64,000 nt of DNA from a virus (IMGVR_UViG_2721755711_000002), one strand, 5' to 3'; positions 3,923 through 27,009 are shown, counted from the first letter of the stretch. Notes: generated by a model from the letters alone, not told the origin. Program-made: numbers and translations.

Positions 3923-4245
3923 TTTTTCCAGAGGCGGTCGAACTCCGCCTTCGCAAAATAAGCGGAAGCCTGGCGAAGGATATCGTTACTGCGGCGCAGT
4001 TCACGATTTTCACGTTCCAGCTCTTTCAGACGCTGACGTTCAGCGGTGGTGAGCCCACCATCACCGCCCCCGGTATCCCGCTCATGCTGGCGAACCCAGA
4101 CACGCAGAGTCTCCGGCGTACAGCCAATTTTTGGGGCAATGGAACAAATTGCCGCCCACTGTGAATCATACTCATCCTGACTTTCCAGAACCATACGAAT
4201 CGCTCGCTGACGGACTTCGGGGGAAAAACGAGTATTTTTAGTCAT
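3919..4245 (-). CDS. IS3-family transposase OrfA (HTH DNA-binding subunit)
   Basis: 108 aa protein [22 protein letters not shown]... matches remembered IS629/IS1203 OrfA; SD GAGAAAGAGG upstream. Confidence 0.85.
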
Positions 4246-6010: not shown

Positions 6011-6374
6011 CGATGCCGATCACTTTCCCGGCGACAGGGCGGGCGCTGCTGTTGTCGGTTTTCGCCACGGTCACGCTGTCTTCCACGTAGCATTCTTTAC
6101 CAACCTGCGATTGCGTGACCGGGTCTGAGGTGCTGTTCGCCATCAGAAAGGCTTTGCCGCAACGCACCAGAACGGTGGCGTCGCCATCGCTGCCCTTGCT
6201 GTTATCCACCCAGCCATCAGACACGCCCAGCGTAATCTGTGAGGCCGTGGCACTGGCCGGAACGGCATAACCGGATGCGTTAACGGCCACCATATGGCCG
6301 CCAAAAATTTCGGTCGCAGCGGCAACCGGCACCGGGTTCAGCTCGCCGTCACGGTAGGGGGTATTGCGATCCAT
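5979..6374 (-). CDS. phage head protein (DUF2190-like)
   Basis: 131 aa Gly/Ser/Val-rich ORF between protease/scaffold and major head genes, as in Mu-like phages. Confidence 0.45.
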   Translation of the reverse strand: MDRNTPYRDGELNPVPVAAATEIFGGHMVAVNASGYAVPASATASQITLGVSDGWVDNSKGSDGDATVLVRCGKAFLMANSTSDPVTQSQVGKECYVEDSVTVAKTDNSSARPVAGKVIGIGDDGVWVHFS

Positions 6375-7544
6375 TTACTCATCTCCTGCGTAACGGGCGA
6401 CATCCTCTGGATCAACGCCCATCATGGAACAAATGGCGATATCGACATCGACGTCATCGCCGGTTTTAATCTGCGCCGGGGCAGGCGACGGCGTTTTGGG
6501 TGGCTTGCCGCCGGTCTGGGTCTGACTGAGCGCAACAAGTTTCGGCGCGTTCTCCAGCCAGGACTTAAAGCCGTTGATATCGCGGCTGGCGTAATCTTTC
6601 GCCCAGTCTTCCTGCGCCGGAAGCAGTCGCCCGTCAGACAGCGCCGCCTGAATCAGTGCCCCGGCTTCGGCCTCACCGGACTGTTGCGCCAGTGCGGCAT
6701 AACGTCCCTGAAGTTCTTCATATGCCGTCAGAGGGATATGCTTCGTCGGGTCATAGGCACTGGCTGACAGGCTGGCGATTTGCTCGTCTTTCTGATTCAG
6801 CAGGGTCAGCAGGCTGACGGATGCCGCCGCCGTTCCCTGACCGTTCGAAATCATGTCAACGACCTTTTGCAGCTCGTTTTTGATATCTTCCGCCGTTGAG
6901 GTAACCGGGAGGTTAAGCATCCAGCGCAGGCTGGACAGCAAATCGTTTAACAGTTCTTCATCCACTGTTGTGGTCTCCGTTTCAGTTGACAGACTCGCCA
7001 GACGGCTGGCCGCAGCCAGCATGACTGCATCCATACCGTCCAGCGCCGGGGTATTGGTCAGCGCAGCGTGTAACAGCTCCAGCACTTCGCCGCGCTTGTT
7101 GTAGGCAAAAACAGGGGAAATAAACTTGTACTCACCGGCGGCAATCATGGCCGCCGCGTTATCCGTCCACTCCACACCGGTGGCATACAGGCCCGCACCT
7201 TCTCGCCATTCCACCTGGCTGAACCAGCCCGCCGCCGGGGCGGGCTTGCCGTTGTTTACGGCGCGCAGCGTCTGATGTTCGTAATCAATGACAAAAGGCG
7301 TGGTACGGGCGGCCACCTGCGCGACAAGCTGCGCGGCCAGTTCAGCGGTCAGCACCCATTTACCGCTTTCGACTTCATCGGTATGTGGGCGACCATCCAC
7401 CGCGCTGAACTCGCCCGCCGGAAACAGCTGGATTTCGCTGTGGGTTGCTTTAGTAATTTCGAGGCTTAATGCCGCAATGTTCAGTTTCATACGCGGCATG
7501 ATGACGGAAGGGGAACACGGGGTACTGTGGAGGGTGTTCAGCAC
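6375..7544 (-). CDS. prohead protease / scaffold protein (Mu gpI-like); start uncertain
   Basis: 389 aa ORF between virion morphogenesis G-like and head genes; acidic C-terminus. Confidence 0.6.
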   Translation of the reverse strand: MLNTLHSTPCSPSVIMPRMKLNIAALSLEITKATHSEIQLFPAGEFSAVDGRPHTDEVESGKWVLTAELAAQLVAQVAARTTPFVIDYEHQTLRAVNNGKPAPAAGWFSQVEWREGAGLYATGVEWTDNAAAMIAAGEYKFISPVFAYNKRGEVLELLHAALTNTPALDGMDAVMLAAASRLASLSTETETTTVDEELLNDLLSSLRWMLNLPVTSTAEDIKNELQKVVDMISNGQGTAAASVSLLTLLNQKDEQIASLSASAYDPTKHIPLTAYEELQGRYAALAQQSGEAEAGALIQAALSDGRLLPAQEDWAKDYASRDINGFKSWLENAPKLVALSQTQTGGKPPKTPSPAPAQIKTGDDVDVDIAICSMMGVDPEDVARYAGDE

Positions 7545-8251: not shown

Positions 8252-9414
8252 GATGCCTCCGGGGTGTCCTGCATAACCCAGCCTGTCAGCACGTCATCCT
8301 CAACCGTCGCCACTGACCAGCGGTCGCCCGACTGTAACGCATACCGCCACGCGTTGCCGTCCTGCGTGACATGCTCCGCCCGTTCGATGGTCTGCTGCAT
8401 CAGCACATAGTCGGCGGCGGTCGGGGGCGTGTCTGTTGCACTGAGGCGCTTCATGACGTCAGCCGTAAGGTTTACCGTCTGCCGTGCAGCGCCCGTGGCG
8501 GCGACCTGTTCCGGTGAACGGATGGCCAGCGGATATCGCTGGCGCGCATCCAGTTCGCTGACGTTCGCCAGTCCCCGGGCAAAATCCGGCCCGGTCAGGG
8601 TGCCGGTGACATACTGGCGGGCGCTGCGGTAATCATATTTTTCCAGTTCCGGCTGCCATGCCACCCGACCGGGATTAAATCCGAAGCCCGGGTCGGCGGT
8701 ATACACGGAGCCGTCCGGCATCTTCAGCCCCATTGTTCTGATGGTCTGGCCCGGCTGGCCATATTCCTGCTCAACCTCAACCAGTCGCCCCTCGCTGCTC
8801 TGCACCGTCAGGCCGTATTTCTCCACATCAGACGCCGAACGCGCCCGGATACGGCAGCGGCAGTGATAACCGTCCGGGGTGTATAAAAACTCCCAGACCG
8901 GGTCATCCGCCCGGGCGGTAAAACCGTTCAGGGCGGCGTGTTTCGGACGGGTGTGAAGGTCCATCACTGCCACGCGTTCAAAATAAGGCCGATCAGCCAC
9001 GTTCGCCATCTGTTGTTGATAACGCCCGGCGTTATATGACGACTGAATGTTGGTATCAAATATCGTGCGTAACCGGCGCGGCGTCAGTTGTCTGCCATGC
9101 AGTTCGCCGGTGTCCTCGTCCACAATCAGTTTTTTACCCAGCCAGCCTTTTGATTCCAGCAGTGGTTCCAGTTGTGCAGCAAACTCCCGGAACGTCCCGC
9201 CGTCAGCCAGTGCCGCCGTCAGGCCATCACGGACATCCTTCAGAACATCCAGTTTCAGCACACCCGCCACCGTGAACGCCCGGGCGTTGGCGATGTCCTT
9301 CACATCGTGCCAGCGGAAGCCGATAACGTACCCCTTGCTTTCGAAATACTTGATCGCTTCTTCCGGTTTCAGGGTGTACGCATAACCCAGGTCAACATCG
9401 TCAGCTGTCGGCAT
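8248..9414 (-). CDS. head morphogenesis protein (Mu gpF / gp30-like)
   Basis: 388 aa ORF overlapping the portal gene end; conserved portal-then-F order. Confidence 0.7.
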   Translation of the reverse strand: MPTADDVDLGYAYTLKPEEAIKYFESKGYVIGFRWHDVKDIANARAFTVAGVLKLDVLKDVRDGLTAALADGGTFREFAAQLEPLLESKGWLGKKLIVDEDTGELHGRQLTPRRLRTIFDTNIQSSYNAGRYQQQMANVADRPYFERVAVMDLHTRPKHAALNGFTARADDPVWEFLYTPDGYHCRCRIRARSASDVEKYGLTVQSSEGRLVEVEQEYGQPGQTIRTMGLKMPDGSVYTADPGFGFNPGRVAWQPELEKYDYRSARQYVTGTLTGPDFARGLANVSELDARQRYPLAIRSPEQVAATGAARQTVNLTADVMKRLSATDTPPTAADYVLMQQTIERAEHVTQDGNAWRYALQSGDRWSVATVEDDVLTGWVMQDTPEAS

Positions 9415-14886: not shown

Positions 14887-15172
14887 GTGGATGCCTCAGT
14901 AACGAAAGGATTTTTGACAAATTCCCGTGCGCCCACACGATAAGCGCACAGAAAACCAGATTCAGCGCCACAACCAGCCAGCTGGAGTGCGTGTATGTAC
15001 CGGACAGCCAGCGGAACGGGATGATGATGTAGCCGAGCATCAGCCAGTACGCCAGCCAGGTAATCATCGGTTTATGCGCCGCACCGTGGCGGCGATACAC
15101 AAACAACCCCAGCACAATGGCGAGGCACAGCCAGACGTTCACGATACCGGCAAGGCTACTTTCCATTTCCAC
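14870..15172 (-). CDS. membrane protein (holin-like)
   Basis: 100 aa protein with multiple hydrophobic helices directly upstream of the endolysin. Confidence 0.45.
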   Translation of the reverse strand: MEMESSLAGIVNVWLCLAIVLGLFVYRRHGAAHKPMITWLAYWLMLGYIIIPFRWLSGTYTHSSWLVVALNLVFCALIVWAHGNLSKILSLLRHPHEIKR

Positions 15173-15548
15173 CCCCTCCGCCGCGCAGTCTGGAAAACAG
15201 GCCGAACAGCGATGAAATTTCCTGTTGATAAAGAAAAGTCAGTATCTTGATGGATAAAGCAGAGACACCGACCGCACACAATGCATCGAGCGGTTTGTCG
15301 TTATAGTGGGTCAGCCACTGCATCAGTGACGCAGCCACGCCAGCCCCCAGAACGCCAACCACAAACGCGACGAGCAGGTGAATAGCCATTCGCCATACCG
15401 GGATTTCTTTCTGCTGAGTGACAACAAAAAGCGCCCCGGCAAACGCGCCCACCACGACCCCGAAATCGGTATTGGTGAGAAGGCCAAACACACTGGCACC
15501 ACCGATGGTGACTGCCACAGCTCCGCCGCCTGATAAGGGTTCAGACAT
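15156..15548 (-). CDS. membrane protein (holin/antiholin-like)
   Basis: About 130 aa from ATG 15548 (SD AGGAGAAA); Gly/Ala-rich transmembrane segments. Confidence 0.45.
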   Translation of the reverse strand: MSEPLSGGGAVAVTIGGASVFGLLTNTDFGVVVGAFAGALFVVTQQKEIPVWRMAIHLLVAFVVGVLGAGVAASLMQWLTHYNDKPLDALCAVGVSALSIKILTFLYQQEISSLFGLFSRLRGGGGGNGK

Positions 15549-15730
15549 GAGTTTCTCCTGTAAATCTGAGCCACTGACGGCCCGTAAATAACACCCTGTC
15601 AAAGGCACAAAAGCCTTTTGCAGGGCGCTATCCCTTAAGGTGCCTTGTGGTCTGAGTGGACAGGGTAAACGGTCTGGTGTGGTGGGTACTGCTGGGGGAG
15701 TTCAGCACCCCGCGGCGGCGGGGTGATAAA

Positions 15731-16036
15731 TCAGAAGCGGGAAAGAGAATCCGGCGTAATAAGAGGTTTATTACAAAGCGGAGCAGAGGCGTTCGCCTTT
15801 TCCATCGCTGCGCGCATCTCGTTTTCGCTGGCGATGATGTCAGCAATGGCACACTGCAACGCTTCTTCCTGAACAACCATATCCGGTTGTTCGGCCATTC
15901 GGTTTAACTGACTGGCCAAATTTTTCATATAAGCAAAGCGACGTCCGGCAGCATCCCGGGCCTGCTCTGAGTAGGCCGTATACTCGCCAAGTGCCATATA
16001 GTTGGTCATAAGTGTCTCCTTTTTTCTGAGGCCCAT
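15731..16036 (-). CDS. hypothetical phage protein
   Basis: 101 aa ORF between Mor/C-like gene and membrane protein genes. Confidence 0.3.
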   Translation of the reverse strand: MGLRKKETLMTNYMALGEYTAYSEQARDAAGRRFAYMKNLASQLNRMAEQPDMVVQEEALQCAIADIIASENEMRAAMEKANASAPLCNKPLITPDSLSRF

Positions 16037-16503
16037 TAATCAAAAAGCCCCACCTGAGTGGGGCTTTTCAGCGAAGTCTGTTTTTGTCGTCGGTGTATCA
16101 GCTGCCATGCGTACCGGTCTGAAATGCCGTAACGGGGACAGAGCAGTGCCAGCGCCTGCCGGTGTGAGCATCCGTCTTTTACATGCTGCTGTAAATCAGC
16201 CATAAAACGGGTGTTACGCAGGGCACGTAATGCATGATCGCAACGGGGAATGTAAAACGGAGCACCGCCAAGAAAGCGGATCAGTTTGTTGATTTCGTCT
16301 TCGGTCAGCACATCATGTAACAGGGCATGGACACCGCCGGTTCGTTCGGCGTGTGCGCCGGTTTTACCGCTTAACGTCACGCCACCAAAAGAACGGATTA
16401 ACCGGGTCAGGGCGGGGAAGCCAATCACGCTAATCAGTTGCTGCACGGAATCAGGCAACAGTGCCTGCGCATCGCGAAGATCTGTTTCACTGAAGGTCTG
16501 CAT
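16036..16503 (-). CDS. Mor/C-family transcriptional activator of phage middle/late genes
   Basis: 155 aa; C-terminal ...FYIPR... RYGISDRYAWQLI... resembles the Mor/C helix-turn-helix region; located before the lysis cassette as in Mu. Confidence 0.7.
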   Translation of the reverse strand: MQTFSETDLRDAQALLPDSVQQLISVIGFPALTRLIRSFGGVTLSGKTGAHAERTGGVHALLHDVLTEDEINKLIRFLGGAPFYIPRCDHALRALRNTRFMADLQQHVKDGCSHRQALALLCPRYGISDRYAWQLIHRRQKQTSLKSPTQVGLFD

Positions 16504-16598
16504 GATGGCGTCTCCGGTAGTAACTTACTGTTATTATAGCCATACATGATCGCCTGTACAGACCACAAAAAAGCCCCTGCAAGGCAGAGGCTGATTCT

Positions 16599-17012
16599 TT
16601 ATTGTTTACGTGCTGCTCTGGCTCGTTTTCTGGCGTCTTTTGTCAGCGCCACCATCACCCCGAACAGTTGATCATCTGTCAGCCATTCGATCACATGTTG
16701 CTTATACATGTGAGATGCCAGTCCTTCCGCATACGCCCAGGAACGACCGGCATCAGCCAGCAACGCTTCAATTTTGGATAATACTGATTTTCTGCTCATT
16801 GCAACACGGGGGCGGCGACCTTTACCGGCGGGTGCCTTGCGCGGAAATCCCTGTTCGTGCATGTATTCCCGGATGATGCGCAGTTCATCAAGATTGCAAC
16901 GTGTGGTGCTGGTTTTACCTGTCAGGCGGGCCAGTGTCTGGCGATAAAGGGCATCATCCCACCCCAGATACGCCTGACCGGCTTTAATGGCCCCGATCAT
17001 CTTTTTCAGCAT
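16599..17012 (-). CDS. GemA-like protein (Mu gp16-like)
   Basis: ORF with start proposed at MLKKMIGAIKAGQ; located just upstream of Mor/C-like gene as gemA is in Mu. Confidence 0.5.
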   Translation of the reverse strand: MLKKMIGAIKAGQAYLGWDDALYRQTLARLTGKTSTTRCNLDELRIIREYMHEQGFPRKAPAGKGRRPRVAMSRKSVLSKIEALLADAGRSWAYAEGLASHMYKQHVIEWLTDDQLFGVMVALTKDARKRARAARKQ

Positions 17013-17262
17013 GTTTGTTATCCTCAAAACGCACGGTAAAACGTGAAACGCCAATCCCCGACAGGAACGCGGCGGCACGGTCAAGAGACAGCCACGTCTT
17101 GTAATCGCCACGGCGTTCCTGTAGAAAATAGGACACCCCGGCGCGGCGATTCACAGCGAAGAGGTGATACACACCACCGAACCGCTGCACGACGAACTCA
17201 TCCACGCCACCGCTTTCAGCCTGTTGCCTGAAAGCTGCCATTCCGATTTGTTCAATCTTCAT
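16984..17262 (-). CDS. hypothetical Mu-like early protein
   Basis: ORF starting at MKIEQIGMAAF, overlapping the gemA-like start. Confidence 0.3.
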   Translation of the reverse strand: MKIEQIGMAAFRQQAESGGVDEFVVQRFGGVYHLFAVNRRAGVSYFLQERRGDYKTWLSLDRAAAFLSGIGVSRFTVRFEDNKHAEKDDRGH

Positions 17263-17284
17263 AATGACCAAAACATCACTTTTG

Positions 17285-17312
17285 GCAGACCAAAACATAT
17301 GTTTTGGTCTGC
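17285..17312. promoter_or_regulatory. 28 bp perfect palindrome (candidate operator or bidirectional terminator)
   Basis: GCAGACCAAAACATATGTTTTGGTCTGC is perfectly self-complementary; the half-site GACCAAAACAT recurs directly at 17267..17278. Confidence 0.35.
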
Positions 17313-17516
17313 TGTTGGTTATTATTTAATTACTTTGCGTTAGTGTGATTCTTCCAGCGATTTTGGGCTGCGCTGGGCTTGTTAAGGGAACACATCACAA
17401 TATCAGCTGTGTTTGTGAACAAACCCATTCTGCGGTTACTGAGTTTTAGCCATTGCTGGACGCCGCGAGCGTTTCTACAGGTCAAAAGAATTTTTGCTTT
17501 ACGGTTTTTCATCTGA

Positions 17517-17825
17517 TTATTCTCCTGAAATCAGTCCTGAACGGATTACTGTTTTTGCAATATGCGCCCGTAATTGCTGCGTTCCGTGGTATTTGATTGC
17601 CACATCGCGTAATTTATTAACCAGCTCCCTGAGCTGATGCTCTTTTGCTCCCGGTGTCACCGGAATGATTCCTGCTCTCCGGTATTCCTGAAGCTCCAGC
17701 AGGGACTGCCGTAAGAGCGTCCACCACTCTCTGTCTACAATCGGCCCGCGCATATCAAGCATTTTGTCAGCATCGGCAATCAGTCTGGTCAGGCCCTTAT
17801 CGCTTATTCTGGTTTGCTGGTTCAC
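17517..17825 (-). CDS. hypothetical Mu-like early protein
   Basis: 102 aa ORF in a tight overlapping array of small genes. Confidence 0.3.
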   Translation of the reverse strand: MNQQTRISDKGLTRLIADADKMLDMRGPIVDREWWTLLRQSLLELQEYRRAGIIPVTPGAKEHQLRELVNKLRDVAIKYHGTQQLRAHIAKTVIRSGLISGE

Positions 17826-18112
17826 TGCGCCGCCTCCTGTTCATTTTTTTCACTCCGGTATACCAAAATCACGACATCACCTACGGGGATAACGCGGGTT
17901 GGTTCTCCCGGCTCTATGCTGTCGATATCGAAGGCCTCAAAGAACTCATTCATCGCCTTCTGCTGCTGCGTCTGTTTACGGTGCTTATTCCATGTTTTCA
18001 GGAATACAAGGGACAGCCACATCCCGGCGCGGAGCATGATGTAACACCAACCGAGAAGAGCGATGCCTGCATTCATGGCTACATCTATCGTTATCGTTTT
18101 ATCAATGACCAT
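17822..18112 (-). CDS. hypothetical small membrane protein
   Basis: 96 aa ORF with one long hydrophobic segment; start overlaps the neighbouring gene. Confidence 0.3.
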   Translation of the reverse strand: MVIDKTITIDVAMNAGIALLGWCYIMLRAGMWLSLVFLKTWNKHRKQTQQQKAMNEFFEAFDIDSIEPGEPTRVIPVGDVVILVYRSEKNEQEAAQ

Positions 18113-18332
18113 TGCCAGCCTCCTGTTTTGCCACTTTAAACGCCCGTAACATCGGAACCGTTTTACCGGTGATGACGGTTTTCATTAAAAGGCCACCGCC
18201 ACTCTGATGGCGCACTTCAGGTGCCACAAACAACGCCGCATCCACAACCCGGTTATAGCGGCGAAACTCCCAGAGCCAGCAGGTAACAATGATTTTTGCT
18301 TTAGTCCCATAGTTATAAAATTCAATATTCAT
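18102..18332 (-). CDS. hypothetical small protein
   Basis: 76 aa ORF in the overlapping array. Confidence 0.3.
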   Translation of the reverse strand: MNIEFYNYGTKAKIIVTCWLWEFRRYNRVVDAALFVAPEVRHQSGGGLLMKTVITGKTVPMLRAFKVAKQEAGNGH

Positions 18333-18556
18333 TTGCAGTTAAACCTTCTTTTGTGACGTTCTACAGCGGCTTTCATGGCGTTGTGCACGGTTCTTTTAAT
18401 AATCCGGCGTCCCGCACTGTCATAGAACCGCCACCGGGAAGCCCCCGGATATCCGGGGAACTCAACCACCGCGCTACCGTCATTCATCCTGTATTCGTGG
18501 CGTTCTCCGGGCGGCTGGTATATTGCTTCGGTAACACTGAGAAGTTTAAAAGCCAT
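18329..18556 (-). CDS. hypothetical small protein
   Basis: 75 aa ORF in the overlapping array. Confidence 0.3.
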   Translation of the reverse strand: MAFKLLSVTEAIYQPPGERHEYRMNDGSAVVEFPGYPGASRWRFYDSAGRRIIKRTVHNAMKAAVERHKRRFNCK

Positions 18557-18558
18557 CG

Positions 18559-19269
18559 TTACACCCTCCCCAGTGCCAGCGGTCTGTTGCTCTGACCATT
18601 AACCCCCTGATGCAGTCTGGCGTTTTTCCCGGCGATAAAACCGGCTGTAGCGGCAAACTCTGCACCCCGGCACGCTTTAGCTGTGCGCATATCCCCGTTG
18701 CGCAGCCCCTTAGTGCTGTGCAGGTTCTTTCTGTAAAGCTCAAGGCGGCTTTTTTCTTCCGGGGAGACGTCATACACCGCAATGACATCACGGGCACCAA
18801 AGACCCAGCCTTCGCAGAACTGGTCGCCACGGGCTACCCGCGTGGACGGACCACAACGTTTGCAGTGTTTATCCTGATATTTTTTACGTTCAGCCATCAT
18901 CTGACGGGAAAGCACATCAAACGCGTATGCCGCAATTTCCGGGCGGCTGTCAGGACCATAAAAACGAACGTAACGTTTGAGTGAACCAGAAGCCCGGTAT
19001 TCGCCGGATATGTAACACTCGACACCGAAGGCTTTACAGACCAGGTCACACAGGATGTGCATATAACGCGGCGGTGTACTGGCATCACTCGGCGCACCCG
19101 CGCTGGCAGCTTCCTGAATGTCGAACAATTCCGCGTCGTTTTCGCTGATGCCATGCTGGCGCATATAAGCCTGGGCTTTTGCAATAGCGTTAGCGGCTTC
19201 TTCCGGGCTTGATGTTCCTCTGGCAAGGCGTAACAGTTTTTTGATTTTGGCAATGTATTTATCTTTCAT
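18559..19269 (-). CDS. Mu-like early protein (DUF2786-like)
   Basis: 236 aa; N-terminal KIKKLLRLARGTSSPEEAANAIAKAQAYMRQHGI motif. Confidence 0.45.
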   Translation of the reverse strand: MKDKYIAKIKKLLRLARGTSSPEEAANAIAKAQAYMRQHGISENDAELFDIQEAASAGAPSDASTPPRYMHILCDLVCKAFGVECYISGEYRASGSLKRYVRFYGPDSRPEIAAYAFDVLSRQMMAERKKYQDKHCKRCGPSTRVARGDQFCEGWVFGARDVIAVYDVSPEEKSRLELYRKNLHSTKGLRNGDMRTAKACRGAEFAATAGFIAGKNARLHQGVNGQSNRPLALGRV

Positions 19270-19480
19270 GGTCGTCTGAACCTCAGCATCCTGAATTCTG
19301 AATTACGCAACTTCCGGCACGGCCTTCAGGAACGTGGGGAGTTCGTTCTGGCTGCGGTACTGAATGAACATCTGCTGTCGATTGAGAACTGGTCGCAAGA
19401 CGATTAAAACAAACGATTGTCAGATTAATTTCGCGGGCGAACTTTTTTTGCTTAGCGATATTCATAAATAAACTCTCTCT

Positions 19481-19516
19481 GATTCAGGCGTAAGCCAGCC
19501 CCGGCGGGTTTACGCC
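19481..19516 (-). repeat. conserved hairpin motif, copy 1 (hairpin then CGCCTGAAT then SD then start codon on minus strand)
   Basis: GATTCAGGCGTAAGCCAGCCCCGGCGGGTTTACGCC; near-identical to copy 3 and related to copy 2; about 20 nt upstream of the start of ORF 19283..19465. Confidence 0.6.
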
Positions 19517-19545
19517 ATATACAAATAAAATTAAAAACAGACTTA

Positions 19546-20091
19546 TTAACTACGACGTTCAGTTTTCCGGTAATGGCGGTCAACAGATTTAACGAACGCC
19601 TTCACATCACGGGAAATCGAATCCAGCGGATAATATTTATCCAGCAGTTCCATTCCGCTGAATCGAATCTGAAAAAAATCAGGCTTATCTTTATATGACT
19701 CCATCAGGTCAATAAACCGCAGCTGACGCGGGAGGGATTCCTGCACGCCTGAAATAGTGAGCAAATCATCTTCAAGGATATATGCGAGGTCTTCCATATC
19801 CTTACAGTCAGACATCATGGATATTCTTGTCAGTATGTTCCGTGTGGCGATATACAGCGCGGCTGTGTCATTCGCCATCATGGCGAACAAATCCCCCTGA
19901 ATATAAGCCCCCTTACTGGCCATAGCATTCCCGGCAATCTGCGCATCAAGTACCACATACATAAAATCGCCAGGTGCACCCAGATGGCCCAGCAATGATG
20001 ACGCCCATAACGTTACATTGGTTAACTTCCCAGATGAACGGACAGCAAAACCTTCAGGAGTAACAATAAATTCCCAGACTTTATCTTTCAT
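19546..20091 (-). CDS. hypothetical accessory protein
   Basis: 181 aa from ATG 20091 (SD AAGGGGA); preceded by hairpin motif copy 2; no recognisable catalytic motif. Confidence 0.45.
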   Translation of the reverse strand: MKDKVWEFIVTPEGFAVRSSGKLTNVTLWASSLLGHLGAPGDFMYVVLDAQIAGNAMASKGAYIQGDLFAMMANDTAALYIATRNILTRISMMSDCKDMEDLAYILEDDLLTISGVQESLPRQLRFIDLMESYKDKPDFFQIRFSGMELLDKYYPLDSISRDVKAFVKSVDRHYRKTERRS

Positions 20092-20105
20092 ATACAAATC
20101 CCCTT

Positions 20106-20135
20106 AATTCAGGCGCAGACCTGTTTACCTGCGCC
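20106..20135 (-). repeat. conserved hairpin motif, copy 2
   Basis: AATTCAGGCGCAGACCTGTTTACCTGCGCC; 7 bp stem GGCGCAG/CTGCGCC, followed on the minus strand by TGAAT, SD and ATG of gene 19546..20091. Confidence 0.55.
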
Positions 20136-20155
20136 ATAAAAAAACGAAGTCAGAG

Positions 20156-20548
20156 TTAAAAATCGAAGACGTCAGTTAATTCCCGCTTCAGTGAAACGCA
20201 CTCAGAATAAAAGCCCTCGCTCTCACCGCACCATCTGACGACTACACAGCCTTTTGATGTGCCGAACTTAAAGAAACTCCATGTCTGATGACCTTCCCCA
20301 ACATCACATTCTTCGGTAACCACTTCAGCCTCTGTCAGCGGTTCATCTTTCAGGTCGTCAAGGTCTCCGACGATGTCCTCAATCCAGACTTTTTCGCAGC
20401 CTTCCTGAAAGTGGAAAAATGTAAACACGGTTCCCCATACTCCCCGGGAATAATCACCACGAAAAACAAGTTCATCGTTTTCATTCTTAACTACTTCTTT
20501 AAATGTACGCCCGAGCATTTCATTGATAACGGTAACACTCATTTTCAT
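20156..20548 (-). CDS. hypothetical Cys-rich accessory protein
   Basis: 130 aa; preceded by hairpin motif copy 3 and GGAG SD. Confidence 0.45.
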   Translation of the reverse strand: MKMSVTVINEMLGRTFKEVVKNENDELVFRGDYSRGVWGTVFTFFHFQEGCEKVWIEDIVGDLDDLKDEPLTEAEVVTEECDVGEGHQTWSFFKFGTSKGCVVVRWCGESEGFYSECVSLKRELTDVFDF

Positions 20549-20555
20549 TTCTCCA

Positions 20556-20593
20556 GATTCAGGCGTAAGTCAGCCCCGGCTGGTTTACGCCTG
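20556..20593 (-). repeat. conserved hairpin motif, copy 3
   Basis: GATTCAGGCGTAAGTCAGCCCCGGCTGGTTTACGCCTG; 9 bp outer stem with inner GC-rich stem; followed on the plus strand by a T-run. Confidence 0.6.
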
Positions 20594-20622
20594 TTTTAAA
20601 TAACAATTAAAAACAAATTAAA

Positions 20623-20814
20623 TTAATGCGGTGCTTTCAGTGTTTCGACTTTTACGAAATAAGGCTCGACATTAATTTCAACCACACAACCACATTTAAA
20701 ATCTCTGGCAGGTGAAACGGTTTTCACCACACGACCACCACGCAACGCCGGATGTGCAGTGTGCATGAAGCGAGTCCCTACCGGATACTGCTTATTAAAG
20801 TTCTTCGCATTCAT
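20623..20814 (-). CDS. hypothetical small protein
   Basis: 63 aa ORF followed on the minus strand by hairpin motif copy 3. Confidence 0.3.
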   Translation of the reverse strand: MNAKNFNKQYPVGTRFMHTAHPALRGGRVVKTVSPARDFKCGCVVEINVEPYFVKVETLKAPH

Positions 20815-21028
20815 GGCGTGGCCTCCAGCCCTTCAGGTGAGCGTTAGCGCAGAACTCCGCACGATGTTCAGCCCAGATGCGGCGCAGGGTGCTACACGGG
20901 CTTTGTGCTGCCTTACGCCACAGCTTTTCAGCCTCGGCATAATCACCGCGCTGTTCAGCTCTTGACGCTCCCAGTGAATACGCCGCGCAACGGTTCCCGG
21001 CTCTGTACTCTTTGATATCCTGATGCAT
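20795..21028 (-). CDS. hypothetical small protein
   Basis: About 77 aa from ATG 21028, 1 nt after the stop of the upstream gene. Confidence 0.3.
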   Translation of the reverse strand: MHQDIKEYRAGNRCAAYSLGASRAEQRGDYAEAEKLWRKAAQSPCSTLRRIWAEHRAEFCANAHLKGWRPRHECEEL

Positions 21029-21029
21029 G

Positions 21030-21674
21030 TTAAACCCCTGCAATATCAAGCGGGATTGCGCGATATTCGTCAGAATCGCCGACGCGCTCATACACACGAA
21101 TATAGCTCTTGCTGCCAATCACCTGGACGGCTTCACCAATCAGCGTCATTGCGTTATTCCAGCGTTCGTCCTCAATTTCAAGGCGACGCAAGGCCAGAAC
21201 GCGCCCGGTGTTAATGTTGCCTTCCTTGTCCGTGCTGAATGCCTCGCTGATGATGGCTTTGATTTCAGGGCGTGCACCTTCCGTCCAGTCAGCCAGGCAA
21301 TCATCAATCAGCGACTTCGCGGTCTGAATGCGTTCATCAAACGCGATACGGTCCTGCATGGCGCGCTGAATCTTGTAACGCCCGTCAAAGCTGTAAAGCG
21401 TGATATTGCCTTTTTTGCCACCTTTCACTGCGCCGTATTTCTCCGCCGACAGGTCAATAAACGCCTGAATATCACCAAAGGCACGTAGTTTCAGTTCACG
21501 CAGTGAGGCGGAGGCAGCAATCACCAGTTCCACAATCTCACCGACCAGCTGCTCGCGGTCGCGGTCAATATCTTTGATAAGGCTTTCAGGTGTCATTACG
21601 CCACGGGCATCCACCCAGTAACCTTCAGGCGCTTGAGTTTTCGTGTATTGCTTAACTTTATTTTCAGTCGTCAT
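21030..21674 (-). CDS. Mu-like early protein (DUF3164-like)
   Basis: 214 aa ORF in the semi-essential early region downstream of B. Confidence 0.5.
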   Translation of the reverse strand: MTTENKVKQYTKTQAPEGYWVDARGVMTPESLIKDIDRDREQLVGEIVELVIAASASLRELKLRAFGDIQAFIDLSAEKYGAVKGGKKGNITLYSFDGRYKIQRAMQDRIAFDERIQTAKSLIDDCLADWTEGARPEIKAIISEAFSTDKEGNINTGRVLALRRLEIEDERWNNAMTLIGEAVQVIGSKSYIRVYERVGDSDEYRAIPLDIAGV

Positions 21675-21703
21675 AATTAAATTACCTCAGTGATATTTAC
21701 AGA

Positions 21704-21919
21704 TTAATTTGTGTTATGTGCGCGAGGCGCAACGTTTTCAGAAAAAATATTCACGCCGTTGTAGTCATTTCTCAGTGCTTCCTTGATAACATCATGTAAT
21801 CCTGTTGCCACCTGAAGCTCCCTTTTGGAAGCGCCATCCTTCGAATAACTCCCTGTAATCCGGGTAAAAGTCGCGCCTTTTTCATTGGTATAGATAATTA
21901 CTTCTAATTTAACCGCCAT
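21704..21919 (-). CDS. hypothetical small early protein
   Basis: 71 aa ORF with plausible spacing to neighbours. Confidence 0.3.
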   Translation of the reverse strand: MAVKLEVIIYTNEKGATFTRITGSYSKDGASKRELQVATGLHDVIKEALRNDYNGVNIFSENVAPRAHNTN

Positions 21920-21931
21920 TCTGATTTCCTC

Positions 21932-22171
21932 TCATTGCCATACGACGGTGCAGCCGTCGATACAGGATGTTTTCACCACGCGGCGCAGGCCGCTGAATGT
22001 CTGGATGATTTCCGTTACCGGCCATACAGGACCACCCACAGGCGGGCAGGCATAAACCACAGGTAAACGGTGATGTTGCCCCGTTACACGACCGCCGGTG
22101 GTGTGGATGGCCACACGGGCACGGGAACGGACGGCATTAATGGTCTGCTTTTCCATCATTTTGTTCTCCAT
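21932..22171 (-). CDS. hypothetical small early protein (Kil-position)
   Basis: 79 aa ORF immediately downstream of the B-like gene, where Mu carries kil. Confidence 0.3.
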   Translation of the reverse strand: MENKMMEKQTINAVRSRARVAIHTTGGRVTGQHHRLPVVYACPPVGGPVWPVTEIIQTFSGLRRVVKTSCIDGCTVVWQ

Positions 22172-23064
22172 CAGTGAATTAACATTTCTGAATATTTATC
22201 AATGGCCTGCACACTGACCGGTGCATCGCTGATATCACAAATCCGGTACACACCACGCGCCAGCTTGAACAGACGACGGGCATTACCCAGCGAACGTGTG
22301 TAAAGTGCCTCACCAATTTCCGGGTCCGCCGCTTCCGGCATCATGTCTGTGGCAATCTTGTTAAAATCTTCCTGCGTCAGCGTATCGCCCAGGTTAAGCG
22401 CCAGCGCCACGCGGCTGTATAATTGAGCGAACTCACCACAACGGCCCTTAAGGTTAATCAGAAGGTGAGGCATACCCGCCAGGACAATCCCGATACCCGC
22501 TTTGTCATGCAGACGGCGCAATACCTCCAGTGCACGATAGGGGAGCAGTTCAGCCTCATCCACCATCAGCAGACGACCTGACCCACGCAGTTCACGCACA
22601 CAGGCATCAATCTTCTCGCGAATATCGCCGTGAACCTTTATGCCCAACTGGCGGCACAGTTCATCGAGTAACTTTCTGGCCGTATAGCCAATATCGGCTT
22701 CAATGAGCACTACATCCCGGTTTCTGGCGGCATATTCACTCAGAATCATGCTTTTACCCAGGCCCGCCGCGCCATACAGAACGCAAATATCACACTCCAG
22801 ATGGGCGTAGGTCAGTACTTCCAGCCCTTTGGCAGCCATGCCGGTGGTGACAAATCGCACTTTAATACGGCGGTTGTTTTCCTTTTCCCATTCACGGGTC
22901 ACAAAGGCAGAAATGCGTTCTTCAATATCAGCCATATCGCCCTGATATTTGCCCTGCAAATACTGGTTGATAACAGCGCTGCTACGACCAATAGCACGGG
23001 CAACGTGGGTCTGCGTAAAGCCGCGACGGGCCATTACGTCATTTAATTGCGTAATTAAACTCAT
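22171..23064 (-). CDS. Mu B-like transposition target-capture ATPase (AAA+)
   Basis: 297 aa; N-terminal HTH-like segment followed by Walker A LYGAAGLGKS; directly downstream of the MuA-like gene. Confidence 0.8.
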   Translation of the reverse strand: MSLITQLNDVMARRGFTQTHVARAIGRSSAVINQYLQGKYQGDMADIEERISAFVTREWEKENNRRIKVRFVTTGMAAKGLEVLTYAHLECDICVLYGAAGLGKSMILSEYAARNRDVVLIEADIGYTARKLLDELCRQLGIKVHGDIREKIDACVRELRGSGRLLMVDEAELLPYRALEVLRRLHDKAGIGIVLAGMPHLLINLKGRCGEFAQLYSRVALALNLGDTLTQEDFNKIATDMMPEAADPEIGEALYTRSLGNARRLFKLARGVYRICDISDAPVSVQAIDKYSEMLIH

Positions 23065-23082
23065 AATTAAATACCTTTTAAA

Positions 23083-25125
23083 TTAACGATTATTTGTGCC
23101 GTTTTTCTTTAAATTGCGCTCACGGTCAGACACGAATAAATAAAGTTCTTCTTTTTCCTTTTTCTCCTGGCGTTCCAGTCCATATCCCAGATTAAACTCA
23201 GGTTTCTGCGTAATAGCCGGGGTAAGTTCGCGTTTAGCCTCTTCGATTTTCTGCGTGGCCCGTGCAATGCGGCCTCGGGCGCGTTTCTCCTGCTGCTGTT
23301 CGATAACGGCTTTCGGGAACGCATCGACCTTGTTACCGTTCCAGATGGCATCGCAGATATAAGAACCGTCCATTCGCCTGACAATCACGCTGTTTGCGTC
23401 GTGAATGTCGTAACAAACCCTGACTTCATTTCCGTGCTCTGCTGCCAGTTCTGTGGAGAAATAGATGTTTCTGAATAACACCACTTCACCGCGTCGCACC
23501 GTGCAGATGCTTTCCGGTCGGAACATTTCATGCAGTTCTTCCGGCGACAGCATGTCGATTTCAGCCTTTTGCTCTTTTATCAGTTTCCGGCGATACGCTG
23601 CCGGGCTGTAATGTTCGCCATCCTCTTTGCGGGGAAGGCTGCTGTGTGGTCGGTTGTTATACCGTTTCACCTCCAGCTCTATTGCGGCCAGCAGTTGCTC
23701 AAAGGTGGGGACTTCTCCCATCGCTTTAACCTGCCGTTTTGTCAGCTCTTTCCCTTTGTGGGTGGCCTTAATGGCTGACTGTGTGATGCGTTGCTGCATC
23801 ATCACCGTTTCCTTGTCTGCATTTTTTGAGCAGTACGTCTGGAAACTCAGGGCCACATCTTTGGGTATTCCTTTGTTTGCCCGTTCTATTACCCCGCGCC
23901 CCTGCGGGTTACCAGGTATCCCCGTGTGATGCTCCACACCCAGTCGGGGCAGAATCCCGGTAATATCGGCATCAAGCACCCGGTTTTTTTCACCGCCCCC
24001 GTTATCGGAGTAATAAATCAGCGGTATTCCGTGTTGTGACATGCCATGACGCAATGCATCAGCAACGGCTATCACGTTCTCCGACAGGGACAGCGACCAG
24101 CCCACAATAAAGCGTTGCCCCGCATCCATAACCAGCGTCACTTCTGGCCGGAATGTATTCCCGGTGGCGGGGCTGAATGCCATCAGTTTCATACAGTGAC
24201 CATCCCCGACCCATACCGCATTAACCGGTAATGTGCTCCAGTCGCGCCGCACAAAGGGATTGAGCGAACGCCAGGCTGAACCGGTGGAGCGGAAACGCTC
24301 CTTCACAATCACCGGGACGTTGCTTAACACCCGTCTTACTGCGTGAACTGAAGGCAGTGCTGCCAGCATTCCTGCGTCATTCGCGTGCTTTTCATGCCAC
24401 CAGGCTGAAAACTCGCGATACGCATATTCAACGGTCGGGCGCTTCCATGAGCGATAGAACATAAAGAAATCGCTCAACCACCAGACCTGCTCCCACGGTG
24501 TTCCCTTATGATGACCGGGAGCCAGTAACGCCAGTAACTGATTGGCATCACCGCGCGCCATCAACCAGGCGGAATACCATTCCTGCAAACTTCCCCAACT
24601 GACGCCAGTTCGCTTACCCTGTCTGGCGTTTGCAGTGCCTGCGGCCTCAATAATGCGGTCAGGTAACGCCCCCATGCGCACACCATCAATGATGTGTTTT
24701 ACTGCTGCCGTCCTGGACATTCCTGCGTATTCACGCAGTTTATGCACTTCGGTAGCCAGCAATATCCGCGCATCAGCGATGGCCTTTTGCTTGTCGGTCA
24801 GTGCCTGAACTTCGCGTAATGCCAGTTCCGGGCATTTGACCATCACTTCCAGTTCATCGCGAACGGTGACGTTTTTAACTGCCTTCTGCTCAACCACGGC
24901 GGGCAGTTGCGCATCTTCCAGAACCTGATGAGTCAGGCGCTTACGTAAAACTTTCTGCGCTTCAGTGGGCAGGCAGTCGATGTGATACTCGAATGCTTTG
25001 GTGCCTTCACGCTTGCGCTTCCATTCCGGGTGCGTCTCTGTGATCCGATTGAGCGTCCAGCGCACCCCCTGAACTGTACCGGGCAAACCAGGAAGACCGG
25101 CCAGCTCATTGGCTGAATAAAACAT
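23083..25125 (-). CDS. Mu-type DDE transposase (MuA-like)
   Basis: 680 aa ORF between ner-like and B-like genes; size and organisation as Mu A. Confidence 0.8.
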   Translation of the reverse strand: MFYSANELAGLPGLPGTVQGVRWTLNRITETHPEWKRKREGTKAFEYHIDCLPTEAQKVLRKRLTHQVLEDAQLPAVVEQKAVKNVTVRDELEVMVKCPELALREVQALTDKQKAIADARILLATEVHKLREYAGMSRTAAVKHIIDGVRMGALPDRIIEAAGTANARQGKRTGVSWGSLQEWYSAWLMARGDANQLLALLAPGHHKGTPWEQVWWLSDFFMFYRSWKRPTVEYAYREFSAWWHEKHANDAGMLAALPSVHAVRRVLSNVPVIVKERFRSTGSAWRSLNPFVRRDWSTLPVNAVWVGDGHCMKLMAFSPATGNTFRPEVTLVMDAGQRFIVGWSLSLSENVIAVADALRHGMSQHGIPLIYYSDNGGGEKNRVLDADITGILPRLGVEHHTGIPGNPQGRGVIERANKGIPKDVALSFQTYCSKNADKETVMMQQRITQSAIKATHKGKELTKRQVKAMGEVPTFEQLLAAIELEVKRYNNRPHSSLPRKEDGEHYSPAAYRRKLIKEQKAEIDMLSPEELHEMFRPESICTVRRGEVVLFRNIYFSTELAAEHGNEVRVCYDIHDANSVIVRRMDGSYICDAIWNGNKVDAFPKAVIEQQQEKRARGRIARATQKIEEAKRELTPAITQKPEFNLGYGLERQEKKEKEELYLFVSDRERNLKKNGTNNR

Positions 25126-25361
25126 TACGCCGCCTTACTGGCATACCGGCTTGGCCAGATCTCCGCAGGTTCCACACCAATAGCATCGGCTATGATGCGT
25201 TCATATTTAGGGCATGAGCGATACAGTGCATTTTTTAAAGAGTCTTTTTTTAGACCAGCGCGTTCAGAAAGTTCACGCAATGTAAAACCTTTGGTGTGCA
25301 CAGCGGCAACGATGTACTCGCGGTGCCAGTCTTTGTTCATTACTTCATTTCTAACCATCAT
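25125..25361 (-). CDS. ner: Ner-like DNA-binding regulator
   Basis: About 78 aa from internal ATG; C-terminal ...IADAIGVEPAEIWPSRY... closely resembles remembered Mu Ner (...ANALETKPEVIWPSRY...). Confidence 0.7.
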   Translation of the reverse strand: MMVRNEVMNKDWHREYIVAAVHTKGFTLRELSERAGLKKDSLKNALYRSCPKYERIIADAIGVEPAEIWPSRYASKAA

Positions 25362-25543
25362 TAGGTTACCCTTAAAAGTTATCCGTGCGGATAACACCGC
25401 CGTGTTATCCCTTCGGATATAAGTATTGATCCATATGTAACCCATGTAAAGCAAAAATAGCCTTTTCTTTGTATTTTCTTTTTGCTTTTGGTCTTTATAT
25501 GGTTTTGTGATTGAAAATCAATTGGTTAAATAGGAAAGGAAAA
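25362..25543. promoter_or_regulatory. divergent early/repressor promoter-operator region
   Basis: AT-rich intergenic region between divergently transcribed ner-like and repressor genes, analogous to the Mu Pe/Pc operator region; no motif-level assignment made. Confidence 0.4.
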
Positions 25544-26191
25544 ATGACAAAAAATGATGACGCTTTTTCTTTAGTTGACCGAGGAAAAGAAAGTTTTAGA
25601 GAGCGTTTAGTAAAACTAATAGGTGGGCGCAGTGTCAGAACTGCCGCGAGCGACTGGGGTATCCCTCCTTCAACCTTAAACAACTACATCCATAAAGGAA
25701 CAGAACCCTCTTTTAAAATAGCCTGCCTTATCTCAGATAAAGAGCGGGTGAGTTTAAATTGGCTCGCTTATGGTGAGGAACTCACCGCCACAGCAAACTC
25801 TTTATCAAACCAAACAGCGCAGCCTTCTCCCGATATTACAAACGAGCTAGCTAACGAGTTATTGAAAAGAGCGTCCACAGAAGATAAAGAACTATTGATA
25901 AATGCAATATGTGATATGGGTATCAAAGGAATCCTAAAACGTCTGCAACAACCCACTAGGCAAGCGAAACAAGCCGCTAACACGCTGGAGGAGCAAGAGA
26001 ATGCTATCCAAAGTCTGAATATCAGGAAATCACTTAAGGATGCAATCCGAGTAGCATTACATGGAAACGAAGATACTGACAGAGAGATTTTGCGAATTGT
26101 TGAATCTCATATACGACCACAATCGCCGGGTGATCAGACCGATGTCACACCGGAGCAAGAAACAAAATCTGTAAGTAAAAAATCAGCATGA
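25544..26191 (+). CDS. prophage repressor (HTH, XRE/CI-like)
   Basis: 215 aa from ATG 25544 (SD AGGAAAGGAAAA); N-terminal HTH-like segment (...RTAASDWGIPPSTLNNYIHKG...VSLNWLAYGE); divergent from ner-like gene. Confidence 0.55.
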   Translation: MTKNDDAFSLVDRGKESFRERLVKLIGGRSVRTAASDWGIPPSTLNNYIHKGTEPSFKIACLISDKERVSLNWLAYGEELTATANSLSNQTAQPSPDITNELANELLKRASTEDKELLINAICDMGIKGILKRLQQPTRQAKQAANTLEEQENAIQSLNIRKSLKDAIRVALHGNEDTDREILRIVESHIRPQSPGDQTDVTPEQETKSVSKKSA

Positions 26192-26479
26192 ACGCCTCGT
26201 TTTGGCGGGGCGCATGCTGCTAACTAATCAGCAACAACCACATCAAAACAAAACCAAACAGGAAAAATAAGGAAACGGGTACAGATAAAGCCCGTTTTAA
26301 AAGCATTTAAAACACGATCAATTATCTGCCATTAATGATTAAAACAGTCCAGATTTGAGCGCAAAAAAATGTACTTTTGATCATTTTCTTCAAAACGATC
26401 CAGAATCGGTAAAATCTCTCACATCCTGCGCCACTCAAGGCTTATAGGCTCGTCCAGGCTGTTCTCACTCAGTCCAGAA

Positions 26480-26755
26480 TTGATCACTACCCCACAGGTA
26501 ACAGAAGACGGTCGTCATGTTGAGGAAGTGCATGTCCTGGGGGATATGTACCGCCTGGAGTTCTATCCGCGTAACACTCATCTTGCAGCGAAGATTGAGT
26601 ATTGCCGGGACGGGAATATTCCGTGCATTCCTGTAGAAAAAGAGGATGAAGCCTACATCATCACACTGAACGGTGACACGGCGCGTTGTATCTGTCGTGG
26701 CGACAGTGAAGCCCGGAATGAAATAGCAAGATGTCGCGCCCATACAGATAAATAA
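26480..26755 (+). CDS. hypothetical ORF, possibly a 3' gene fragment truncated by the Mu-like insertion
   Basis: ORF begins only with a TTG call immediately outside the Mu-like end, without a convincing SD; followed by a strong terminator. Confidence 0.25.
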   Translation: MITTPQVTEDGRHVEEVHVLGDMYRLEFYPRNTHLAAKIEYCRDGNIPCIPVEKEDEAYIITLNGDTARCICRGDSEARNEIARCRAHTDK

Positions 26756-26764
26756 AAAGCAAAA

Positions 26765-26795
26765 ACCCCGGCTGCGGGAACAGTTCGGGGTTTTC
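26765..26795 (+). terminator. rho-independent terminator
   Basis: CCCCGGCTGCGGGAACAGTTCGGGG stem-loop followed by TTTT. Confidence 0.5.
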
Positions 26796-26826
26796 TGTTT
26801 CTGACCTTGAGTAAGCAAGGGAGAAC

Positions 26827-27009
26827 ATGGAGAAGTATAAACGAATTCTGTTTAGGTTGACTATGAAAAACGGCCTTGAATTGAAAGCGCCTGTAACTGA
26901 TGACATCAGCAGAGCGGTGGCTTTTGCCATTAAGTGGGTGGCTGTCGGTATCGCTGTGTCTCCGATTCTGTATGGGATGGCAAAATTGATCATTGCTGTG
27001 AAATCGTAA
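26827..27009 (+). CDS. small C-terminally membrane-anchored protein
   Basis: 60 aa; strong SD AAGGGAGA; C-terminal hydrophobic helix. Confidence 0.4.
   Translation: MEKYKRILFRLTMKNGLELKAPVTDDISRAVAFAIKWVAVGIAVSPILYGMAKLIIAVKS

Follow-up and report, generated by a model that had tools for sequence, protein, structure and literature searches.

Intercistronic hairpins that process or stabilize messages include the RNase III sites in the early mRNA of phage T7 and the REP stabilizers in E. coli operons. In prophages, hammerhead ribozymes flank single variable genes, and it was inferred that they cut long phage transcripts into gene-length mRNAs (Perreault et al. 2011, PMC3088659). In T4-type phages, the PeSLs contain both a strong sigma-70 early promoter and a terminator (Arbiol et al. 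2010, PMC2839356; Comeau et al. 2014, PMC4122927). The role of bacterial and prophage hammerheads has been unclear since their discovery in 2011. At the locus described here, the same junction, ahead of the same genes, is occupied by such a ribozyme in some Mu-like phages and by a 30-nt hairpin in others, the model phage Mu being among those with the hairpin.

The window, by which we mean the whole 64-kb stretch of DNA that was analyzed, was 100% identical to the chromosome of E. coli strain C5 (NZ_CP010122.1) and is a Mu-like prophage of that strain. The hairpin region lies inside the early operon of the prophage, which is transcribed from the minus strand. The gene order is a repressor (plus strand), a ner-like gene, MuA, MuB, two small genes, DUF3164, an ANR-family gene, and a 63-aa gene, followed by the three hairpins with their intervening genes, DUF2786, several small genes, and GemA; a terminator, a Pm-like promoter, and Mor come next. 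The features of the hairpin region are as follows.

20623..20814, minus strand: 63-aa gene (phrog_5591), the end of the conserved block MuB...DUF3164-ANR-63aa
20592..20622, minus strand: AT-rich tail, from the stop codon of the 63-aa gene to HP3
20562-20591, minus strand: hairpin HP3, type A, 30 nt, GGCGTAAACCAGCCGGGGCTGACTTACGCC, extendable by two pairs to 20560-20593
20156..20548, minus strand: DUF7448 gene, 130 aa (Pfam PF24240, E 2e-15); cassette 1, with its own leader, tail, and HP2
20136-20155, minus strand: equivalent AT-rich tail before HP2
20112-20135, minus strand: hairpin HP2, type B, 24 nt, GGCGCAGGTAAACAGGTCTGCGCC, stem GGCGCAG/CTGCGCC
19546..20091, minus strand: 181-aa gene (phrog_7741, a family of unassigned function); cassette 2, with its own leader, tail, and HP1
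19517-19545, minus strand: equivalent AT-rich tail before HP1
19487-19516, minus strand: hairpin HP1, type A, 30 nt, GGCGTAAACCCGCCGGGGCTGGCTTACGCC, equal to the family consensus
20557-20565, 20107-20115, and 19482-19490, minus strand: exact matches of the joint CGCCTGAAT, i.e., the last four stem bases plus TGAAT
19283..19465, minus strand: 60-aa ORF after HP1, an alternative right-hand partner of the joint
18559..19269, minus strand: DUF2786/DUF7168 gene (Pfam)

The 60-aa ORF is annotated in strain M8 and unannotated in strain C5. Searches of Pfam and PHROGs returned only DUFs for the neighboring and cassette genes, a PDB sequence search gave no matches, and the literature on DUF2786 and DUF3164 held no functional information. 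By tblastn, the 181-aa gene had no phage match, and the phage homologues of DUF7448 were only distant ones (<50% identity) in unrelated phages.

An earlier note on this DNA had described three hairpins, each followed by CGCCTGAAT, an SD sequence, and the start codon of the next minus-strand gene, and we found this description and the positions given for it to be correct: TGAAT lies immediately 3' of all three hairpins, and a purine-rich SD sequence and ATG follow. The upstream location also stood, although the distance to the start codon, given in that note as 15-25 nt, measured 13 nt for HP3, 20 nt for HP2, and 21 nt for HP1. Copies 1 and 3 were nearly identical, as had been noted, with differences between HP1 and HP3 at 2 of 30 positions; their likeness covers 57 nt at 82%, taking in the AT-rich tail as far as the upstream stop codon, and the 181-aa gene's tail has the appearance of a diverged copy of that of the 63-aa gene. 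In the stem of HP2, GCAG/CTGC takes the place of GTAA/TTAC, which amounts to three compensated pairs. The 9-mer CGCCTGAAT is not rare, with eight exact copies in the window, mostly intragenic; since it is common there, the specific feature is the combination of hairpin and 9-mer.

The calculation of RNA fold energy proposed in the earlier note gave stable sense-strand hairpins of -15.1 kcal/mol (z -1.3) for HP1, -14.4 kcal/mol (z -3.0) for HP2, and -20.1 kcal/mol (z -4.1) for HP3. A covariance model trained on other copies had exactly three matches in the 64-kb window, namely, HP3 (20548-20603, 69.4 bits), HP1 (19473-19528, 66.7 bits), and HP2 (20098-20147, 25.9 bits, E 9e-4), the last of which was absent from the training set. 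An Rfam search of window region 15000-27000 at E <= 1 returned no relevant match and no ribozyme.

A cassette boundary was among the meanings that the earlier note had considered, and comparison within the E. coli lineage bore it out: relatives differ in which of the genes between the hairpins they carry, and the joints fall exactly at the hairpin/CGCCTGAAT. The 1.6-kb region was matched in 58 of 5426 complete E. coli genomes, with coverage in steps of 100, 73, 59, 51, 37, and 18%. Joints were read in 14 chromosomal loci of this lineage and in 17 of its IMG/VR contigs; throughout them, a gene always comes with its own leader in front and its own tail and hairpin behind, next to changing partners. 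The tail of the 63-aa gene with its type A hairpin is followed by DUF7448, the 181-aa gene, the 60-aa ORF, or a DUF2786 variant; the DUF7448 tail with its type B hairpin by the 181-aa gene or a DUF2786 variant; and the 181-aa tail with its type A hairpin by the 60-aa ORF, a DUF2786 variant, or a second 181-aa-like gene. HP3 occupies the ancestral position, directly past the final gene of the conserved early block; HP2 is always linked to the DUF7448 gene tail in the relatives, and HP1 moves together with the 181-aa gene tail.

Clean joints mark the absence of either cassette: that of DUF7448 is missing in L002, L004, L087, and other loci, and that of the 181-aa gene in L003, L004, L091, and L103, while strain JNE21-009 has one hairpin where the window has three. 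Seven of the eight combinations of DUF7448 (present or absent), the 181-aa gene (present or absent), and two right-hand types were seen. The homology between relatives changes over within the last stem bases plus TGAAT, i.e., at the hairpin/CGCCTGAAT, which is the sole stretch common to type A and type B copies. These results show that in the E. coli lineage the hairpin is the joint for cassette gain, loss, and exchange and that the module has been duplicated along with accessory genes, a cassette consisting of leader, gene, tail, and hairpin. Even if the hairpin had no special recombination activity, however, mosaic borders would be expected where a conserved block ends. Hairpin arrays occurred only in the E. 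coli lineage, and other genera had one copy per locus.

Relatives beyond E. coli were collected with the DUF3164 protein as an anchor, which gave 80 loci from species-representative genomes and 80 viral contigs. The 1.6-kb region itself had no match by blastn in the phage collection, and relatives were found only with the short consensus element. The 30-mer, with zero to few changes, occupied the corresponding position in Mu-like prophages of at least 12 enterobacterial genera (Photorhabdus, Xenorhabdus, Yersinia, Pantoea, Mixta, Kosakonia, Serratia, Providencia, Morganella, Trabulsiella, Buttiauxella, Erwinia, and Lonsdalea), and prophages of Providencia, Buttiauxella, and Xenorhabdus carry the 30-mer of HP1 unchanged. 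The DUF3164 proteins of those prophages are 61-78% identical to that of the window and the DUF2786 proteins 40-50%. The hairpin forms a peak of conservation, its mean pairwise identity being 0.93 versus 0.55-0.8 for the flanking genes (1.1-kb alignment, 14 loci).

The covariance-model search in other Mu-like prophages that had been proposed recovered the motif across enterobacterial genera and in Mu. The copy in phage Mu, ttttaattatGGCGCGATACGTCAGGAGATTGCTCGCGCCtgaaac, lies between gam and gp11 (36.4 bits, E 1e-7), and its stem changes are compensatory; the SfMu copy has CGCCTGAAT. Between Mu/D108 and SfMu/Yersinia Mu-like phages, homology ends approximately 8 nt past the hairpin. The Mu hairpin is unannotated in GenBank AF083977 and M64097, the family is not in Rfam, and we found no description of a Mu early-region hairpin in the literature. 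The idea of a local triplet with a CGCCTGAAT core had to be given up, since the hairpin is the conserved part and is widespread in Mu-like phages, whereas TGAAT after the stem is limited to E. coli/Shigella-type copies; the other genera have AAAAT, AAATT, TAAAT, or TGAAA.

The hairpin regularly begins about 31 nt past a stop codon; among 108 unique instances, this distance was 29-36 nt in more than 90%, and the start codon lay 12-25 nt 3' of the hairpin. In every enterobacterial relative, the hairpin comes after the block MuB...DUF3164-ANR-63aa. At least 17 unrelated families supply the first gene downstream, and the leaders differ completely from one downstream gene to another. These data show that the module is a conserved structured intercistronic element, shared by the early operons of phage Mu and the DUF3164-type Mu-like prophages of Enterobacterales, and that the conserved transposition/early block gives way there to a hypervariable slot for accessory genes. 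The hairpin is a landmark for this slot, whose families, all of unassigned function, are candidates for host-takeover or anti-defence genes.

Covariation was in agreement with a base-paired structure. In 33 distinct variants, 84% of the cells were paired versus 17-41% when the partner column was slid, and four pairs had compensatory changes (UA/CG, AU/GC, CG/GC/AU, and GC/UA). Double-change cells numbered 25 versus 10.8 +/- 2.5 after shuffling, and none of 500 shuffles reached the observed value. The stem consists of 13 interrupted pairs, and the single-stranded flanks are A/U-rich. The hairpin is retained in phage Mu, SfMu, and the type B copies with different stems, and the interior is not conserved among type A, type B, and Mu copies. 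The loop NGGG is almost invariant and asymmetric; because of this asymmetry, a single-strand function is favored over a symmetric double-stranded DNA site. RNAalifold predicted the hairpin alone, with no conserved pairing with the SD region or the flanks. Single sequences can be folded with SD sequestration or extended pairing of the flanks.

Relatives outside Enterobacterales (Pseudomonas, Stutzerimonas, Aquitalea, Chromobacterium, Bordetella, Acinetobacter, a Desulfovibrionaceae MAG, and others) have no hairpin, and the gaps of the same operon contain GCGAAAC...GUC...CUGAUGAG. The Rfam model Hammerhead_II (RF02276) gave 26 matches in 20 of the 20 hairpin-less loci tested, all on the sense strand and with scores of 56-83 bits versus a gathering score of 37; six of the 20 loci have two hammerheads per operon, sometimes flanking genes. 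In none of the 12 hairpin loci tested, Mu and SfMu included, did Rfam detect a hammerhead. The 5' end of the ribozyme was within 3 nt of the upstream stop codon in 24 of 26 cases (the other two at +4 and +9) and the start codon 0-21 nt past its 3' end, so that the ribozyme fills the stop-to-SD gap exactly. Homologous genes stand behind the ribozyme in one lineage and behind the hairpin in the other, namely, DUF2786, a 133-142 aa family (E 1e-8), and an 81-85 aa family (E 3e-19); the hairpin is located 28-31 nt ahead of the DUF2786 gene in many genera, where the non-enterobacterial relatives have a hammerhead. The hairpin also occurs in a context of the hammerhead type, filling an intercistronic gap of a prophage operon and flanking variable genes. 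These comparisons show the hairpin to be the positional counterpart of the self-cleaving type II hammerhead. The hairpin is not itself a type II hammerhead, as the CUGANGA ... GAAA core is missing and Rfam gave no match, and the stretch GCG(U)AAAC(C)CGCC that both contain gave no significant sign of homology (local score 15.7 versus 13.1 +/- 2.4).

We consider it fairly likely that the module is a sense-strand intercistronic RNA boundary element, for processing or insulation, that is also the joint for cassette shuffling. The module, laid out as AT-rich tail, GC-clamped hairpin, A/U-rich linker, and SD sequence, would work on the sense strand, marking the limit between segments of the polycistronic early mRNA. 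A host RNase would probably cut in the A/U-rich flank or linker adjoining the stem; after the cut, the upstream segment would keep a protective 3' hairpin, and the leader of the downstream gene would be uncoupled. The hairpin may thereby perform the same task as the self-cleaving type II hammerhead at this junction in the non-enterobacterial relatives. The module, being conserved while its neighbors diverge, would supply short homology for module exchange. Cleavage or stabilization at the hairpin is something we infer only from position and analogy; RNA processing, one of the roles envisaged in the earlier note, gains indirect support from the hammerheads at the same junction.

Several points speak against the boundary reading. 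Sequence conservation is far above what a plain decay barrier needs; RNase E is also present in Pseudomonas, yet a ribozyme is found there and a hairpin in the enterics; and an interrupted hairpin of 13 pairs is short for a typical RNase III site. The G-U versus A-C counts, 13 sense-only versus 29 antisense-only with 21 of the 29 from one conserved A.C, give no strand assignment. The equivalence of ribozyme and hairpin suggests that both groups of phages need the early polycistronic mRNA to be broken or insulated here, and the hairpin system in E. coli is tractable for testing this idea.

Among the alternatives to a boundary element, an attenuator or terminator on the sense strand, like tR1 of coliphage 186, is unlikely but survives best; early transcription would be partly stopped or paused before the accessory region and read through (anti-terminated) in lytic growth. 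The consensus element matches 96 phage records, mostly P2/186-like, in which the corresponding 5' half and flanks (AATGGCGTAAACCCGCCGGG ... AAATTCAGGAG) lie in a gap of the early lytic operon before the SD sequence; a stretch of the GGCGTAAACCCGCCGGG type was matched by blastn at 82-85% over 44 nt in 62 records, also in an early-operon gap before the SD sequence. In 186, PsP3, and Fels-2, TGGCGTAAACCCGCCGGG ... AAATTCAGGAG is located between fil/dhr (or other variable genes) and orf79, with covariance-model scores of 24.7-27.7 bits, and in NC_001317 the shared stretch is the annotated terminator tR1 (feature 24384-24412). The 186 version folds into a 7-bp stem with the loop UAAACC, followed by CAUUCUUUU. 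Our search of the literature found no description of 186 tR1.

The likeness to tR1 extends to an intergenic gap of the early lytic operon, a position beside a variable gene slot, and a place right before the SD sequence; the 3' halves, however, differ. The 186 element is a true intrinsic terminator with a U-tract, whereas in the Mu-type copies the shared bases form the 5' arm of a longer hairpin whose 3' half is GCTGGCTTACGCC in place of the 186 sequence, and UGAAU, AAAUU, or UGAAAC follows rather than a U-tract. The window hairpins are GC-rich, with stems of 7-13 pairs and energies of -14 to -20 kcal/mol, as in terminator hairpins, but UGAAUC or UGAAUU comes after all three, and a minus-strand terminator scan was negative for each of them. 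The hammerheads at the same junction cut RNA and do not terminate transcription, and no gene is common to the Mu-like slot and the tR1 neighborhood of 186, PsP3, and Fels-2.

Somewhat more doubtful is a bolder version of the processing idea, according to which transposable phages of enterobacteria, Mu among them, would have exchanged the hammerhead for an unrecognized signal for sequence-specific RNA processing, or even for a minimal motif that cleaves itself; the hairpin would in addition be dedicated to cassette exchange, so that RNA boundary elements would underlie an integron-like array in the early accessory region of Mu.

Terminators on the plus strand, shielding the early operon or insulating morons, are improbable. 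The earlier note had raised antisense terminators of this kind and had described two copies as terminator-like on the opposite strand; only HP3 passed the plus-strand scan, and a T-run on that strand is missing from HP1, HP2, and the copy in phage Mu. Folding of the antisense strand gave slightly greater stability than that of the sense strand, and the consensus 5' flank TTTAAAAAT reads as AUUUUUAAA past the stem on the opposite strand in many genera; however, no plus-strand promoter was detected in 16000-26200, and the equivalent ribozymes are all on the sense strand.

A palindrome in double-stranded DNA, bound by a dimeric phage regulator and possibly the operator of an internal accessory-gene promoter, is very improbable. 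The very high sequence conservation, the good inverted repeat formed by the two halves, and the AT-rich, -10-like TAAAAT and AATTAT that adjoin the stem in many genera would suit such a site, but the loop, although conserved, lacks symmetry, the copies of type B and of Mu differ in length and are unrelated in their interiors, the ancestral E. coli copy has ACA instead of AT before the stem, and relatives have ribozymes in place of the hairpin. A sigma-70 promoter in the AT-rich tail was rejected, as the best match, 8/12, was no better than in shuffled flanks and the tool scan found none.

Just as improbable is a role in translation of the next gene, whose RBS the hairpin would mask or expose, or for which it would bind a regulator. 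The distance to the SD sequence and ATG is constant, and many copies have an ATG or TTG start codon at the base of the stem; the leaders of the downstream genes, however, differ completely, and SD sequestration was rejected because RNAalifold showed no conserved pairing of the hairpin with the SD region or of the flanks. The translational control mentioned in the earlier note is, in this form, unsupported.

Least probable is a dedicated DNA recombination site of the integron attC type in a cassette-capture system, or a new small self-cleaving RNA: the integron-like array of gene plus imperfect palindrome with crossover at a short conserved core on its 3' edge, a conservation stronger than a plain hairpin requires, and the ribozymes at the same position elsewhere argue for it, but no integrase or site-specific recombinase is annotated among the 29 genes of the early region and its flanks, the attC core GTTRRRY is missing, the arrays are restricted to the E. 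coli lineage, a junction or pseudoknot of the kind required by known self-cleaving RNAs is absent from this single interrupted hairpin, and neither a conserved interior across types nor an Rfam ribozyme match was found. A host REP/BIME or MITE was rejected, as the 77-nt element is confined to the 58 of 5426 E. coli genomes with this prophage, in one to four places each, and is not dispersed in the host.

Compared with known systems, the boundary element proposed here resembles the T7 and REP hairpins in being a stable intercistronic stem-loop in a long phage early mRNA with A/U-rich single-stranded flanks. It is much shorter than the RNase III sites of T7, with cleavage being proposed by analogy, and unlike REP elements it is not scattered through the host genome. 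It shares with integron attC sites an imperfect palindrome at the 3' end of each cassette and joints in a short core at the palindrome edge; however, there is no IntI integrase, attI, or RYYYAAC/GTTRRRY core, and the genes have their own SD sequences in a phage operon. With the T4 PeSLs it has in common short repeated stem-loops between non-essential genes in a plastic region, where insertions, deletions, and replacements end at the repeats, but here a promoter is unsupported and the hairpin is no sense-strand terminator. With the prophage hammerheads it shares the operon, the strand, the stop-to-SD gap, the homologous downstream genes, and one to three copies flanking single variable genes; it differs in being a plain hairpin of 24-30 nt without the CUGAUGA/GAAA core, and any cleavage would, unlike that of a hammerhead, need a host RNase. 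Although it has neither the catalytic core nor the promoter that define these two systems, the element behaves like the prophage hammerheads and the T4 PeSLs.

Most variants of the conserved hairpin of enterobacterial Mu-like early operons have a start codon where the stem begins to pair, at its foot; the frame reads ATG GCG TAA. This start codon is TTG in some variants, and the frame ends in TGA in the Pantoea variant; the ancestral E. coli copy, of the type of HP3 (one of the three intercistronic hairpins of the window), has none. The stem-foot start codons mapped were as follows:

19514-19522, minus strand: mini-frame at HP1 (ATG 19522-19520, GCG 19519-17, TAA 19516-14)
20138 downward: start codon at HP2
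2867 of Mu (L179) and about 1887 of phage 186 (L178): corresponding start codons

In Mu and at HP2, the frame crosses the entire hairpin in 15-18 codons and ends at the start region of the next gene. The stem-foot start codon may be due to chance or may act as a coupling device.

In DUF3164-type Mu-like prophages whose hosts are not enterobacterial, the early operon was found to carry type II hammerhead ribozymes (RF02276; loci L038, L042, L046, L057, L067, L082 and 14 more). There are often two per operon, on either side of DUF2786 or other genes. Examples from L042 are:

8568-8634 and 9723-9796 of L042: type II hammerheads (RF02276)

An enterobacterial-type hairpin is present in phage VW-6B (MF975721), whose host on record is Pseudomonas fluorescens:

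3998-4053 of the VW-6B locus (L176): hairpin, 73 bits

Since its 30-nt core is identical to the commonest Yersinia-type core, yet other Pseudomonas relatives have hammerheads instead, recent transfer or a mislabelled host is suggested.

The interval following HP1 contains a 60-aa ORF that is unannotated in C5 and annotated in strain M8 (WP_140431899.1):

19283-19465, minus strand: 60-aa ORF

In E2348/69 and STEC316, an ORF is annotated on the opposite strand of the corresponding interval (WP_000564495.1); these are two competing putative ORFs, and one or the other would be real. The prophage of the relative E. coli RM9088 (L086) is probably dead, with two IS1A copies in its early region, one of them inside the transposase gene:

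6306-7003 and 9079-9776 of L086: IS1A copies

A second conserved intergenic structure was placed in the gap 17299-17516, ahead of the gene preceding gemA:

17266-17314, minus strand: GCAGACCAAAACATATGTTTTGGTCTGC then CAAAAGTGATGTTTTGGTC, ATG directly after

It consists of two neighbouring inverted repeats (CCAAAAC/GTTTTGG), and every E. coli-lineage locus that was read has it. In appearance it resembles a tandem operator or an RNA switch; our terminator scan also called it as a plus-strand terminator.

Two intrinsic terminators were also mapped:

44675-44703, plus strand: ordinary terminator before a plus-strand gene, GGCGGTTCAGGCCGCC then TTTTCTTTTT
16533-16592, minus strand: terminator directly after gemA, AGCCTCTGCCTTGCAGGGGCT followed by TTTTTTG

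The complement of the former contains CGCCTGAAT by coincidence; we rejected it as a member of the hairpin family because the covariance model gave no match there, and it is thus unrelated. The latter is followed, before mor, by TGTACA-16-TATAAT. As in Mu, the early transcript is expected to end at the gemA terminator, with TGTACA-16-TATAAT as the expected middle promoter.
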